From the NCBI GenBank assembly GCA_964609895.1, contig CAZSTG010000006.1:423-62813 (forward strand): a stretch of DNA of 62,391 nucleotides, given 5' to 3'. The notes under the pieces were generated by a model. The model searched no databases, had not been told where the DNA came from, and saw only the letters and a list, made by a program, of their open reading frames with translations. This document shows, in pieces, positions 20,721-25,811 of this stretch. A program made the translations under genes and the position numbers. Position 1 is the stretch's first letter. Every line of letters begins with the position of its first letter. This stretch comes from an uncultured Gammaproteobacteria bacterium. GTDB lineage: Bacteria > Patescibacteriota > Microgenomatia > UBA10105 > UBA927.

Positions 20721-23700
20721 TTAGTTTATTACCCACCAGTTGAAGGAGATGTCGTTCGTCGTGGGGGAGGTGATGGCGACGGTAAATTGTCCCGTTTCTT
20801 TGGTAATCACTGATAACGTTTTGTCCGTCGCGCTGGTTGGTGTGATGAATATCAGCGAGTCTTTTGTGACTTTATCCGTTTTTATTGTGATGGTGGTGGT
20901 ACCATGGAGGATTTTTCCGACGCCAACTGAAGCTGTTTTAGCACTGTCTGTTGCTGATGTATCAGTTTGCACGGTAAATTTGCTTGCGAAGATTTCACCC
21001 GCTGAAAGCGCGCCGCTCACGGATGCAGAGCCGTCCGCATTGAATGTTGCAACTGCATTTCCATCGTTTCCTTTGACAATAAGCTTGCCGAATGCGCTCG
21101 GGGTAGCTGATGCTGATGCATTACCATTTTGTGCCAAATCGAGTGTGATATTTTGATTTTCTAGCGGTTTTATCGTTGAAATACCTAAAATTCCGCCTAT
21201 TTGTACATTTCCTGCGAATATCGCATTACCCGTTGTGTCGATGACGAGCGCACCATTCATGAGATCAATGTTGGCAAGCCGTGTTTTTTGGAGATATAAC
21301 GGCTCAGTAACTGTATCGATGGATGTGCCGGAAACATAGAGTGATGCATCAATCATCAACGATCCTGTAATCATGGTTTCTCCCAAAATGGTGTTGCCGA
21401 GTGCCGAGAGATTTTGGTTCAAAAACAGTGTATCTGCCTGAATAGTTCGGCCGGAGAAATCTATATTTGGATTTTCCATTGTTTGGTTTTTAAACATGTC
21501 TGCAAATAATGCCGCTGTGGATGCAGGGAGTGCGCTTGTTTCATCAAGTGCCGGTGTTTCATAGATTGTGTTTTGGACGATTGTTGTTGAACTTGTTGCT
21601 ATAGTTGGAATAGAGGCTGCAAGAGTGGCAATCTGATCATCGAGATTGCCAAATTTTGTCACGATGCGGTCCGCAAACAGCGTGCCTGCAACAGTTGCTT
21701 CCTCTGTCTCTATAGCTGTTGCAGTGAGTTTTCCTTCTTCTGAAATGCCCGCAACAGGTGTGTTGTCGTCATTGGTTACGATAAATGAAGTGTCTGTCGG
21801 AAGATGTATAGTGATTGTTTCGCCTGAAAGTGGAGAAATGGTGTTTGTTTTCACTTCTTGCACCTCGGCGAGTGGAGAAATAACTTTGTGAGTGGCAAAT
21901 TGTACGCTCATCTCCTGCATAGCCTTCACGAGATAAGGAACGAGTGAGGAAACGGAGAACGTCAGGAAGCCATCTGCAGGATTTGTTCGAACGAGACTTG
22001 GAATCACCTCCTGTACTTCCTGTGCGATGAATCCGGATTCATTTTTTTGTCCGTTTATAAAATCAAATGTGACTGGACGGAGCGCTTTGACCATATCCAT
22101 GGCGCTTGTGGTAATAGTGGAAATATTTGTTTTGAGTCTTGCATCCGAGGTGCATTGTCCAATCTGGCCGGTTGTCGTGTTGATACACACATTCGTTGCA
22201 CTGACAGAATCCGTGGTGAGATCATAAAAATCTCCGCCTGATGCTGTTATCGATCCGTTGACATCTAGTGCTGTCGTTGGATTGGTTGTTCCGATGCCGA
22301 CATAACCGGAATTTACGATGCGCATAGCTTCTGTTGCACCATTATTGCCGACTTTAAAGAGCATGTCTGCTCCTGCCGCACCAACACCTGCTGTTGTTTG
22401 CAGTGTGAGTCCGGTATTGGTATCGGTGGAACCGATAAGCGTCTGACCGCCTGTTCTGCCGGCAAGGAGGGCATATTGTGTATGGTCATCAAGAGTTAAG
22501 CCTGTGAGCAGTCCGTGGGCAGTTGCCACATAAGTCCCCGACGGAAGATTGGAAACATTACGCAGATCCTGTGTTTCGACATATGTTTCATTTGTCCCGC
22601 TTCTTCGTACTAATACCCGATATAATACCTTCATTTCAGCAAAGGGCAGTGTGTTGAGCGACAATGACTGGTACGTGTTGTTATTTCGTGCGTCCGTGAG
22701 ATTACTGTCTTCCCGTTGCCCCATGAGGGAATACATAGGCGTTGTCGGATCGTTGGTTGCAAAAATCCAATACGCAACATAGTTATTATTGGTCACATCC
22801 GTCAATGTGCCCGCATTATCATATTGGATGATATCTGTTACTTCATGAAAGTATTTTGCCTGCGGGGATGTATAAGTATACGCAGAACCGCTGCGGTAAA
22901 AAACCCGTGTTTGTGTCTGTTGAGCGATAGAATGAAGAAGATCTTCATCAAAAATACTTCCTTCTGTGATGGTAAATCCTGTATTGGTAAATGTACCGGT
23001 TAAACCTCGGTTATACCGTGTTCCAATGGTTTTATGGATAAATTCGTGGGTTGCACCATCCATGGAAACACCGTGTCGTTCATCACCAATCAGTCCCGTT
23101 GCCCCATTCCAGTAGACGGTGGCAATAGGGATATTGGTTGATGCAATATCCCACGCTGAGGTGCTTGTGGTTAAGACACCGCTTGTATTGTAGTAGATAT
23201 AGTGTTGTCCGACATCTGCTGATATCTGAATGGATTCCGTATTTTTTGTGTATTCTACACCTCCTGAATACACTTTAAAATTCGTTCCTGTAATAGTGAA
23301 ATTTCTGGCTGTTGGTGTTGTGTCGGTAAAAGACAGTGCTGTGTCTGTCCTGTTTGGAAATCCCGTTGTTTCTTTTGTGATAGTCCGTTGCGTAGTAAGA
23401 TATGAGTCCAGTTCCTGAATTGATGTTTTTATATTTTCTGTAGTAATAATGCTTCCCGTTAATCCGGTAAGAACTGCCTCTGTCGCACGGAGCGTCCCAC
23501 TAATATCCAGATCATATGTCGGATTGGTGTTGCCAATACCGATGTTTCCTTGAGTAATAATGTTTCCATTGTCTCCATTGAGTATTATGCGTGCACTTGC
23601 CGTCGATGTTGTCGACGGATTGTCAGATGGAGAAAACGATATGTTGCCCAGTGCTATACTTCGATTCACCACAGGGTAGGGGTAGATGAGATTATCTGTT

Positions 23701-25811
23701 GATGAAAGTCCAAACACCGGTTGTCCATCTGGACCTCCAGCACCCATTTCTCCTGTCGGACCTGCAGATCCTGTTGCTCCCGTTGCACCAGTTGCTCCTG
23801 TTGCTCCCGTTGCACCAGTTGCTCCGGTTGCACCGGTCGGGCCGCTTGTTCCTATTCTTCCGGTTGCACCCGTTGCTCCCGTTGCACCCGTGGCTCCGGT
23901 TGCACCGGTTGGACCGGATTCTCCCACACTGCCCGTTGCACCCGTGGCTCCGGTTGCGCCGGTTGGACCTTGTATTCCGGAAGCGCCTGTCGCGCCTATT
24001 TCTCCGGTTGCTCCGGTTGGGCCCATGTCTCCCGCGACTCCGGTTGCTCCGGTTGGGCCGATTTCGCCCGTTGCACCCGTCGCTCCAGTTGGGCCGCTTG
24101 CTCCGGCAATTCCTGTTGCACCTGTTGCCCCCGTTGGGCCAGTTTCTCCAATAATTCCCGTTGCACCGTATATTCCCGTTGCACCCGTCGCTCCCGTGGC
24201 ACCTGTCGGCCCGATTTCTCCCGTTGCACCCGTCGCTCCATTAGCTCCCGTCGCTCCAGTTGCACCTGTTGTTCCTGTTGCTCCTGTTGGTCCGTGTGCG
24301 CCATTGGCTCCGGTTGCACCCGTGGCTCCGGTTGCACCCGTGGCTCCGGTTGCACCCGTCGGCCCTGATGCACCCATTCCGCCGGTAGCTCCGGTTGCAC
24401 CCGTTGCGCCGGTTGCACCTGTCGGACCTGGTAATCCTGTAGCTCCTGTCGGGCCGATTTCACCCGTTGCTCCGGTTGCACCAGTTGCGCCGGTTGCACC
24501 CGTTGCACCGGTTGGGCCGGATTCTCCCACGCTGCCGGTAGCCCCTGTTGCACCTGTGGCGCCTGTTGATCCCGTCGGGCCTGCAGCACCTGTAGCTCCT
24601 GTTGATCCCGTCGGGCCTGCAGCACCTGTAGCGCCTGTTGATCCTGTAGCACCAGTTGCGCCAGTCGGACCGACAGTTCCTGTCGCACCCGTTGCTCCCG
24701 TGGGTCCGCTTGCTCCGGTTGCTCCGTTTGTTCCTGTTGCACCTGTCGTGCCGACAACACCGGTAGCACCAGTTGTTCCTTGTGTACCTGTTGCCCCCGT
24801 TGGTCCCTGTGAACCGATGGTTCCTGGTAATCCGGATAAACCGGTGGAACCGGTAGCACCAGTTGCCCCCGTCGGACCGGCATACCCGGTAGCTCCTGTT
24901 GCACCGAGTACTGCCCCTACCGAAGCGGGAGCAGTGGTTGTTTTTAAGGATGAAATGCTGGTTACCAGTTTTTTTGTTTCTGCTGCTTTCGATGCAATGG
25001 AACGCTGATTTTGTATACCAATGACTTGTGTCAGTACAGCACCTGCGCTGATGAGAAGCAGGATAATTGCAGCGATCAATGTATATGGTTTCTGTGGAAC
25101 TTTTTTCTGCATTGGATATGATTTGATATCTTTTGATGTTTTAAGAGCTGGTATTATGATTGTGTCGGTTTTAGCGGAAGCCTGCAGTTGTTCAGGAGTA
25201 ATGAGTGGTTCCGGAATAGGAGGTGGAGGAATCGGTGCATTTGGATCATCAGGTAGTTCGTGTTTTGCGAAATAGGATTTTTGTATATCATTTTCCGGTG
25301 TAGGTTGGGGTATTGAGGCTGTTTTCTGGATGTTCGGCCGTTCGATATTTTGGAGTGTATGTGTTTGTGTTGTCGGAGCCGTCTCCGAAATTCCTGGCAC
25401 TCGTTGATACGGTGTGCGAGTTGCAACGACTTTCAATAAATCTTCAGGGAAATACCGGCGAGCGTTATTATTGGTTCTGCTGCTTTTGATAATGCCCGCC
25501 TTATCCCATCGGAGTAGAGTGTTTTTGGAAATATGCAAGAAATGCGCGGCATCACTGAGAGAAAGTGGTTTTTGAGGTAGTTTGATATCTTTTGAATTAT
25601 TTAGTTTTTTAACTTCAGCTTCATTTGATATAGAAAGATTTGTTTTGATACTATCTATGGATTCCCGTGAGATAAGGTGGATGCCATTCACATCAATGGT
25701 TGCCTGCAGTTTGCCGGCATGAATCCAATTTCTGATGCTTCCTTTAGAAACAGCAAGGAGTTTTGCTGCTTGACCTATAGTTACTTGCTTTGATGAAGAG
25801 GATGTATTCAT
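20721..25811 (-). CDS. 1,696-aa membrane-anchored protein: 2x MerR/excisionase-type HTH, TM helix, collagen-like G-X-Y domain, large beta-rich region, S74 (tail-fibre intramolecular chaperone)-like domain, C-terminal extension
   Basis: - HTH 1: [26 protein letters not shown].
- HTH 2: [25 protein letters not shown].
- TM: [24 protein letters not shown] (about 25020-25090).
- G-X-Y run: 23722-24908.
- S74-like segment: SDARLKTNI...[15 protein letters not shown]...[12 protein letters not shown]. Confidence 0.9.
21897..22148 (-). other. Peptidase S74 / intramolecular chaperone auto-processing-like domain inside the collagen-like protein
   Basis: T|[55 protein letters not shown]...[12 protein letters not shown]. 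The candidate autocleavage Ser is residue 1222 (codon 22146-22148). Confidence 0.7.
23722..24908 (-). repeat. collagen-like triplet repeat (about 130 consecutive G-X-Y codon triplets, mostly GAT/GPT/GST)
   Basis: Uninterrupted Gly at every third residue, from [13 protein letters not shown]... to ...[12 protein letters not shown]. It generates the antisense PVAPVAPV shadow ORF 23686..25008. Confidence 0.9.

Follow-up and report, generated by a model that had tools for sequence, protein, structure and literature searches.

Architecture of the fibre gene and its product

The DNA analysed here, referred to as the window, is a stretch of 62,391 nt (contig CAZSTG010000006.1) from a tiny, uncultured member of the Microgenomates, within the candidate phyla radiation (CPR). 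Its subject is one open reading frame (ORF) at 20721..25811 on the minus strand that, according to the ORF list, begins with ATG and encodes 1696 amino acids (aa). From N to C terminus the product consists of an HTH_17 helix-turn-helix (HTH), a MerR-type HTH, a Pro-rich linker, a transmembrane (TM) helix, a collagen tract, a neck, an insertion, a Peptidase_S74 domain and a further 394 aa. We tentatively read it as an N-in/C-out trimeric surface fibre, an adhesin assembled from phage-fibre modules, whose membrane-tethered BldC/Xis-like HTH tail would bind DNA, possibly at its own promoter. All Pfam domain calls exceed the curated cut-offs, and a look-up of the exact protein sequence returned no record. 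The N-terminal features are given below in window coordinates; numbers beginning with L denote related loci that are described in the next section.

20721..25811, minus strand: whole gene, encoding the HTH-HTH-TM-collagen-fibre protein (ORF list and in-frame orthologues L008, L009, L010, L011, L015/L016, L017)
25650..25781, minus strand: HTH 1 (aa 11-54), HTH_17/excisionase type (PF12728, 56.1 bits vs a cut-off of 27)
25434..25562, minus strand: HTH 2 (aa 84-126), winged HTH of MerR/BldC type (PF00376, 46.6 bits vs 28.2)
25092..25391, minus strand: Pro-rich, poorly conserved, predicted cytoplasmic linker (aa 141-240; 18 Pro per 100 aa, length varying among orthologues)
25014..25085, minus strand: predicted single TM helix (aa ~243-266), a signal anchor (Kyte-Doolittle hydropathy)
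24906..25013, minus strand: conserved outer juxtamembrane stalk (aa 267-302), ending V301-L302-G303 (QVIG(I/V)QNQRS..SKAAE conserved among orthologues)

An earlier note on this DNA had given the same domain order and coordinates, and Pfam, hydropathy and a regular expression for G-X-Y all bear it out. It had also described the N-terminal domains as a MerR/excisionase-type HTH pair, to be abandoned should profile searches fail, and both regions pass: besides the matches listed above, HTH 1 scores 31 bits with the TIGR01764 excisionase model of NCBIfam (cut-off 28.8) and HTH 2 scores 27.9 bits with PF13411 (MerR_1). The best solved relatives, both marginal, are the mycobacteriophage Xis-like Gp37 for HTH 1 (4j2n, E=0.031), which is nearly invariant in five orthologues, and BldC for HTH 2 (6amk, E=0.013). 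The likeness to MerR ends with the N-terminal winged HTH. The C-terminal coiled-coil dimerisation helix and the effector-binding domain of classical MerR proteins are absent, the MerR_1 match covers only profile positions 2-44 of 69, and HTH 2 is followed by the Pro-rich linker. By sequence, then, the HTHs resemble the stand-alone BldC/Xis type and not classical MerR. They do not belong to the BldC family proper, given 24.6 bits with NCBIfam HTH_BldC (cut-off 77) and their place in a 1696-aa membrane protein. Six of the nine DNA-contact residues of BldC, as taken from PMC5859096, are identical in HTH 2, namely T98, R101, W102, K104, R118 and R119 (BldC T27, R30, W31, K33, R47 and R48). Since these six are kept, and are invariant in the five orthologues, the HTH part is predicted to be competent to bind DNA.

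The TM helix is the sole 19-aa window with a Kyte-Doolittle hydropathy above 1.6, and there is no signal peptide. The net charge is +12 in aa 1-140 versus about -47 in the outer part, and the only two Cys residues of the protein both lie outside the membrane. On these four grounds the topology is predicted to be N-in/C-out, and the earlier claim of a single TM helix with this orientation stands on hydropathy and charge. The predicted arrangement of a cytoplasmic DNA-binding domain (DBD), one TM helix and an outer domain is that of ToxR, with no Pfam hit to the OmpR/PhoB-type Trans_reg_C DBD at E<=1. An internal Met233 just before the TM helix is not conserved in the orthologues, and therefore the TM anchor would be made only within the HTH fusion.

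Conservation of the fusion at a syntenic locus

Is the joining of an HTH-TM part to a collagen fibre real? Orthologues were sought by a degenerate-pattern scan of one genome per species, plus further look-ups. L008, a Microgenomates metagenome-assembled genome (MAG), contains an ORF of 1304 aa that is 81% identical over the N-terminal 300 aa. The ORFs of L009 (a Gottesmanbacteria MAG) and L010 have 1264 and 898 aa, and the frame of L011 stays open from the HTHs via collagen and S74 until the contig stops. More distant, with N-termini 37-38% identical, are L015/L016 (1024 aa, with HTHs, collagen and S74) and L017 (3060 aa, with HTHs, collagen and Laminin_G_3 and without S74). The orthologues occupy the slot between a divergent LysM-M23 peptidase gene and a convergent rho, and the same chromosomal neighbours occur in at least eight independent assemblies, in seven of which the frame is kept across the junction. 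The locus is evidently syntenic and vertically inherited in Microgenomates. Because in-frame orthologues lie at the same M23/gene/rho locus, the HTH-TM-collagen fusion is, as judged from sequence, real. The search of related genomes proposed in the earlier note has thus found the same fusion, in frame, in at least seven other Microgenomates assemblies, and its alternative of separate HTH and collagen genes is contradicted by the one frame in the orthologous loci.

Two loci are interrupted. The frame of L014 breaks inside the collagen tract, and in L001 the HTH-TM part is a separate 281-aa ORF with the fibre part in a different frame. When L001 (3440-3480) is compared with L011 (4045-4085), a patch of ~37/38 nt is found to differ just before the collagen and to shift the L001 frame; the two loci are identical over the ~170 nt shown around the junction and encode the same first 79 residues. 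The patch may represent strain variation, pseudogenisation or an assembly chimera. A programmed -1 frameshift, by slippage on the A-run after the TM helix, was considered and rejected: KKTTVLS is read in the zero frame in both L010 and L011, and the latter, though equal to L001 on either side of the junction, keeps the frame. The records of L010 and L011 are titled 'uncultured Gammaproteobacteria bacterium' and that of L012 'Rikenella sp.'; L010 and L011 carry clear orthologues and Microgenomates-type synteny, and the three titles probably stem from mistakes in binning or labelling at the source.

The outer fibre

The part of the protein predicted to lie outside the membrane beyond the juxtamembrane stalk is divided as follows.

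23718..24905, minus strand: collagen-like triple-helix stalk, 132 G-X-Y triplets (aa 303-698), mostly G-A-T (Pfam and regular expression)
23556..23717, minus strand: neck (aa 699-752), '[15 protein letters not shown]...STTSTASA' (common to orthologues and other large collagen proteins)
22248..23555, minus strand: insertion of 436 aa (aa 753-1188), placed after the neck and ahead of the pre-S74 segment (absent, by pairwise alignment, from L008, the closest orthologue)
22527..23384, minus strand: conserved ~285-aa domain within the insertion (aa 810-1095), phage receptor-binding-protein-like (sequence matches and AlphaFold2 (AF2) model)
22149..22187, minus strand: Cys1209...Cys1220 loop just before the putative cleavage site (no other Cys occurs in the protein; both kept in L008, L009 and L010)
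21906..22148, minus strand: Peptidase_S74 intramolecular chaperone domain (aa 1222-1302) with the S1222/K1227 dyad (Pfam, PHROG and 8jov alignment)
20724..21905, minus strand: C-terminal 394 aa (aa 1303-1696), ending ...FNWWVIN (86% identity to L008)

The collagen run is long and uninterrupted, as is typical of the collagen family (396 residues, 1188 bp; PF01391, 179.9 bits), carries Thr at the Y position in 91 of the 132 triplets, and has as its first Gly the G303 of V301-L302-G303 (24903-24911). Partial, sub-threshold NCBIfam matches to the SclB and Lcl collagen adhesins (174.8 vs 325) and PHROG matches to 'collagen like minor tail' are found in this part. Variation in repeat length had been anticipated and is seen among the orthologues, with 132 triplets in the window, 147 in L008 and 138 in L009, and, counted by eye from the printed translation, about 23 for L010 and about 170 for L011, a range to be read with the caveat that short-read assemblies can collapse G-X-Y repeats. 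The neck and the last ~390 aa (ending FNWWVIN) are common to the orthologues and six other large collagen proteins (P0084-P0090), whose contigs each end or have gaps inside the collagen tract, such that the N-termini are lost. Two large collagen proteins that share the neck are named Gottesmanbacteria or Portnoybacteria.

The '500 aa of beta-rich sequence' of the earlier description is mostly the 436-aa insertion, which L008 lacks and which holds a domain common to uncultured phage fibre proteins. This domain (aa 810-1095) has ~50% identity to parts of more than 100 proteins, of which the few with source names span several phyla, and it matches no Pfam or PHROG family. Its AF2 model, built on 22 sequences with a predicted local distance difference test (pLDDT) of 80.9, has template-modelling scores of 0.71-0.80 to four uncultured Caudovirales proteins of ~1000-1250 aa, one of them with S74, and weak matches in the PDB to phage baseplate and fibre proteins. 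A candidate HExxH metalloprotease in the insertion (HEFIH, aa 922-926, in 'THEFIH') was rejected, as the two His are conserved and the Glu is not. The tips of the orthologues are mosaic: the insertion is missing in L008, Laminin_G_3 is found in L017, and the collagen length is variable.

In phage fibres, S74 is normally C-terminal and is removed after the trimer has folded. Membership in the S74 family rests here on PF13884 (57 bits vs a cut-off of 22, aa 1222-1274), on PHROG fibre C-termini that match aa 1222-1302, and on the Ser-Lys dyad of the S-D-x-x-x-K motif: S1222-D-A-R-L-K1227 aligns with SDERLK of the solved phage tail fibre 8jov, and SD(A/V)RLK is conserved in orthologues L008-L011. 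The earlier assignment of S74, with its SDxRLK motif at Ser 1222 and ~390 residues beyond it, agrees with these matches and with the 394 residues counted. Given the PHROG tail-fibre matches on collagen and S74, the 8jov alignment and the Caudovirales-like model of the insertion, the outer part is phage-fibre-like, as far as homology and modelling can say. Self-cleavage at S74 would release the last 475 aa to the exterior and would not free the HTHs, because S74 and the HTHs are predicted to lie on opposite sides of the membrane; therefore any release would need a separate intramembrane protease. The earlier note had suggested a ToxR-like sensor or a membrane-sequestered regulator, and the predicted HTH-TM-outer-domain topology fits this proposal; S74 could not be the means of such a release.

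Could the gene simply belong to a prophage or tailocin as a common tail fibre, or could mis-assembly or a frameshift across the repeat have produced the fusion as an artefact? In favour are the PHROG tail-fibre matches and L001, one related contig with the two halves in different frames. However, the window gene has no phage genes next to it, and the called genes of the orthologous loci include none. In place of a phage tail or baseplate gene cluster, the neighbours are rho, an M23 peptidase, tRNAs and glycosyltransferases in conserved synteny, with the frame maintained as described above, and the central 522 aa have no PHROG hit. Both forms of this explanation are effectively refuted by the orthologue set, and the earlier judgement that this is 'not simply a prophage tail fibre' is upheld by the neighbouring genes and the synteny.

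A candidate upstream control region

The region ahead of the gene, with positions relative to the main ATG where negative, contains the following features.

25808..25918, minus strand: 36-codon upstream ORF (uORF; MRKNVASKTHPNTS...), its stop overlapping the main start as ATGA (intergenic comparison)
25925..25953, minus strand: promoter-like boxes TTGACA-17 nt-TGTAAT, with the uORF ATG 6 nt past the second box (conserved in orthologues)
25986..26033, minus strand: pair of ACCTATAG boxes in direct orientation, spaced by 36 bp and lying ahead of the -35 box (distances kept in L008, L009, L014, L015 and L017)
26082..26095, minus strand: conserved box TGCATGAATTTTGG at -284 (intergenic alignment)
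25772..25783, plus strand: third, inverted copy of the box (GACCTATAGTTA) in codons 10-13, overlapping conserved T-I-G-Q codons

The overlap between the uORF stop and the main ATG is kept in the window, L001, L008, L009, L010, L011 and L014 (read by eye from its sequence in L014), and the N-terminal peptide motif M..(F/V)(A/T)S(K/Q)...N(P/T)T... is kept also in L015 and L017, where the end differs. Because this conserved uORF ends on it, the annotated main ATG is supported. TTGACA is at -142, and the uORF transcript may be leaderless, its ATG following TGTAAT by 6 nt. The spacer of these boxes, at 17 nt, is not the over-long 19-20 bp spacer of classical MerR promoters. The two direct boxes have the form [CT]TATAG at about -220 and -184, and the block at about -284 reads CATGAATTTTGGC in the alignment of five intergenic regions from which the conserved blocks were recognised; the blocks are present also in L014, L015 and L017. 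The boxes at -284, -220 and -184 hold near-identical distances to the ATG even where protein identity has dropped to 37%. The window has three CCTATAG sites, all within 260 bp of the start, and the derived 12-mer has no copy elsewhere in its 62 kb. On this pattern of conservation the upstream boxes are candidate operators. A search of the conserved leader and intergenic region against Rfam gave nothing at E<=1.

A wider family of HTH-membrane proteins

A HMMER search of the full library with aa 1-300 returned 299 representatives at E<=1e-3. Among the best 150 of the 299, nearly all proteins of at least 250 aa have N-terminal HTHs, a single TM at aa ~130-280 and a variable outer domain of up to 4430 aa. 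Several members have collagen, two more have collagen and S74, and in one, P0123, the TM helix is preceded by eight tandem HTHs. The members with names belong to Gottesman-, Beckwith- and Daviesbacteria, and the annotations are 'hypothetical', 'excisionase family', 'MerR family regulator' and 'Peptidase S74 domain-containing'. The combination of tandem MerR-type HTHs, one TM and a large variable outer domain is therefore a widespread, uncharacterised Microgenomates architecture. The earlier note had called either of its two readings unusual; the architecture itself is no isolated case, the same tandem-HTH and TM module standing in Microgenomates at the head of dozens of different outer domains of large size. 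No paper describing the architecture, or the [VI]LG motif discussed below, turned up in literature searches directed at it, and those on HTH_17/MerR with TM in Patescibacteria, collagen in CPR/Gottesmanbacteria and membrane-anchored MerR found nothing relevant.

What might a module shared so widely be for? One answer is a structural tether without gene regulation, in which the HTH tail would fasten the fibre base to the nucleoid, like RacA and ZapT-type MerR-like anchors, or to a cytoplasmic protein, like the RodZ HTH to MreB, and so position or brace very long surface proteins within a very small cell. That one module precedes dozens of unrelated outer domains suggests a ligand-independent role, and the eight tandem HTHs of P0123 are also in favour of such a tether. 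RacA and Xis, moreover, are architectural proteins with the same fold as BldC (PMC5859096). However, the recognition-helix and wing residues of HTH 2 are invariant, promoter-specific boxes at fixed distances exceed the needs of a non-specific tether, and no partner protein has been identified. We regard a tether of this kind as unlikely.

A second shared feature lies just outside the membrane. A [VI]LG motif at a median of 30 aa past the TM is found in 48% of members (P0122-P0271) versus 6.9% of control windows (about 7-fold), regardless of the outer domain, and a motif related to the fibre's juxtamembrane segment occurs in the collagen subfamily of HTH-TM proteins. The [VI]LG motif may be a processing or docking site; we know of nothing that matches it. 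Regulated intramembrane proteolysis is an established principle for bitopic anti-sigma factors, and the fibre could by that precedent be a membrane-sequestered regulator, in which engagement or damage of the fibre would trigger a juxtamembrane cut and a site-2 protease would then free the HTH pair for distant genes. The conserved outer segment QVIG.QNQRS..SKAAE and the enrichment of [VI]LG are both consistent with such a cut. Against this, S74 could not make the release, being predicted to lie across the membrane and about 950 aa away, no site-2 protease is seen in the window or the loci, the boxes have no copies elsewhere in the window at which a freed HTH pair might act, and cleavage of the HTH part is only putative. 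Release by proteolysis is in our estimation improbable.

The same motif admits another reading, in which the HTH-TM part is a lineage-specific export or anchoring leader that is cut at [VI]LG, the fibre being released or passed to the wall or S-layer while the stub stays behind as a small membrane protein. Here the evidence is that [VI]LG falls exactly at the border of stalk and outer domain, G303 being the first collagen Gly, and that L001 encodes its HTH-TM part as a separate 281-aa ORF. However, L011 matches L001 on both sides of the junction and is in frame, such that the split in L001 comes down to a local ~37-nt patch; no protease or sorting system is known for [VI]LG; and roughly half of the family lacks the motif. 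A cleavable leader is accordingly given little credence.

Neighbouring genes

The flanking genes are chromosomal and comprise rho, the LysM-M23 peptidase, two tRNA-Ala, a DUF2298 gene, PMT-type glycosyltransferases and 23S/5S rRNA. The rho gene (19065-20708, plus strand) encodes a long extension at the N-terminus that includes a low-complexity segment rich in G/Q/Y/R (...RGGYRQGGYQQGGYNQQGYGQQGGYRR...), likewise found in the orthologous loci. Its stop codon and that of the convergent fibre gene are only 12 nt apart, with no terminator-like hairpin called between them. Adjoining rho, at 11820-18838, are large polytopic membrane proteins, namely two PMT-type (GT-C) glycosyltransferase-like genes, an unassigned 544-aa ORF and the DUF2298 gene; large membrane proteins including DUF2298 adjoin rho also in L008, L009, L010 and L015. 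The collagen stalk of BclA is O-glycosylated, and it may be speculated by analogy that these membrane proteins O-glycosylate the Thr-rich stalk of the fibre.

On the other side, a single ORF of at least 10,774 codons (30069-62391, plus strand) continues past the 3' end of the window. A short N-terminus and one TM helix precede Cys-rich modules linked by (PTKT)n, and no Pfam family was found in the 10,000 aa searched. Its post-TM segment (NLEKQQDIRSRAAGG) resembles, by eye, the juxtamembrane motif of the fibre protein, and the equivalent neighbourhood of L017 has a gene for 12,315 aa. An alternative genetic code for the ORF-poor 30-62 kb was considered and rejected, the region being one giant ORF that leaves the window.

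Comparison with known systems

The constituent parts of the protein (S74, collagen, BldC/Xis-like HTH and the bitopic-regulator plan) are of already known kinds. Among the closest known systems are the MAT fibres of Bdellovibrio bacteriovorus, which are cellular phage-like trimeric fibres with and without S74 (PMC10769870). Both they and the window protein, whose trimer is predicted, are cell-encoded surface fibres of phage-tail-fibre type with swappable tips, made by a bacterium that lives on others, and S74 (SDxxxK) and non-S74 members occur in both families. A 47-aa stretch of the window protein matches Bd2439 fibre chains at E=2.8e-4. In contrast, MAT fibres begin with a signal peptide, then an anchoring domain of ~130 aa that is beta-rich and conserved, where the window protein has HTH-HTH-linker-TM. 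They have no TM anchor, cytoplasmic part, HTH or collagen stalk, and their S74 is terminal. The MAT fibres are the closest functional analogue, without the TM-HTH anchor.

To our knowledge, MYRF/MrfA, a eukaryotic membrane-bound transcription factor, is the sole characterised protein type that joins a DBD, S74 and a TM. Like the window protein, it combines a DBD, a self-cleaving S74 trimerisation domain and one TM in one chain (PMC3742443, PMC3828593), and several hundred residues follow S74 in MYRF as well. The order differs: in MYRF it is DBD-S74-TM, such that cleavage frees a DBD trimer, whereas in the window protein the HTHs (11-126) are followed by the TM (243-266) and only then by S74 (1222-1302). 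Moreover, the DBD of MYRF is of the Ndt80 type and not MerR-like. ToxR, CadC and TcpP have an N-terminal cytoplasmic DBD, one TM and an outer sensor, and act while tethered to the membrane. Unlike the window protein, with its two HTHs and an outer fibre of ~1400 aa, they carry a single OmpR/PhoB-type DBD (Trans_reg_C) and a small globular periplasmic domain. RodZ likewise has a cytoplasmic HTH, a linker, one TM, an outer Pro-rich linker and a beta domain, and its HTH binds MreB, not DNA. Its HTH is of the XRE type, its outer domain is small and its function is in cell shape, whereas the HTHs of the window protein are MerR-like and the outer part is large.

For the HTHs themselves the comparison is with BldC and Xis, with which they share a MerR fold without coiled-coil and effector domains and, as a candidate target, a pair of direct repeats (PMC5859096). 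BldC is, however, a soluble protein of 68 aa that acts on adjacent 9-bp repeats, whereas the window protein has two different HTHs in tandem, predicted to be tethered to the membrane, and boxes 36 bp apart. The stalk resembles those of Scl1/Scl2, Lcl, BclA and phage collagen-like fibres in its uninterrupted G-X-Y, and BclA is also Thr-rich at Y. Those proteins are anchored via LPXTG, the exosporium basal layer or the virion, and the window protein via an N-terminal TM with HTHs.

A proposed surface fibre with a putative DNA-binding tail

How would a fibre of this kind work? We propose that the collagen and S74 parts trimerise the protein, giving a stalk about 110 nm long if the collagen helix rises its usual ~0.29 nm per residue. 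By analogy with phage and MAT fibres, S74 would cut at S1222 after assembly and outside the cell, leaving a disulfide-stapled tip, with the 475-aa C-terminal piece either shed or held non-covalently. The outer end would bind a surface structure of another cell, like phage and Bdellovibrio MAT fibres. Beneath the membrane the trimer would cluster six HTH domains, tethered as in ToxR, and these would bind DNA cooperatively at direct repeats, like BldC and Xis, the likeliest target being the gene's own deeply conserved upstream ACCTATAG boxes. Assembly or engagement of the fibre would in this way feed back on transcription in a ToxR-like manner, without release of the HTHs.

Several points count against this model. 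DNA binding, trimerisation, S74 cleavage and adhesion are all steps that we infer. HTH 1 is without the basic RRY wing, and a module shared across the family is no less to be expected of a generic tether or anchor than of a ToxR-like sensor with a specific ligand. The upstream boxes, which were picked out post hoc, could instead be sites for RNA polymerase or some other factor, and conservation at the protein level may explain the third, inverted box. A consensus promoter scanner made no call on TTGACA-17-TGTAAT, which has G at position 2 of the second hexamer. At the outer end, the 394 residues beyond S74 are unlike phage fibres, and their AF2 monomer is a poor model (pLDDT 42) in which only the last ~70 aa are confident, a beta-sandwich with weak resemblance to tailspike C-terminal domains. 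We retain the tethered fibre with a DNA-binding tail as a tentative reading, which has somewhat less than an even chance of being right.

A bolder version would make the protein a contact-sensing transmembrane transcription factor, in which the phage-derived fibre of an ultrasmall episymbiont binds its host, a change in the state or tension of the trimer is read out on the chromosome by the six tethered BldC-like HTHs, and the superfamily is an unrecognised one-component system for surface-to-DNA signalling. We consider this doubtful. If it were true, the superfamily of tandem HTHs, TM and giant outer domains would be a major surface-to-DNA signalling system of the Microgenomates. CPR/Patescibacteria have few classical signalling systems, and how they recognise and respond to hosts is largely unknown. 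By joining a phage-type receptor-binding fibre to DNA-binding domains through one membrane helix, the family offers a testable candidate for host contact, and possibly also for contact-dependent gene control. Its mosaic, fast-changing tips parallel the fibres of predatory Bdellovibrio and suggest that bacteria living on other bacteria have convergently put parts of phage fibres to use.

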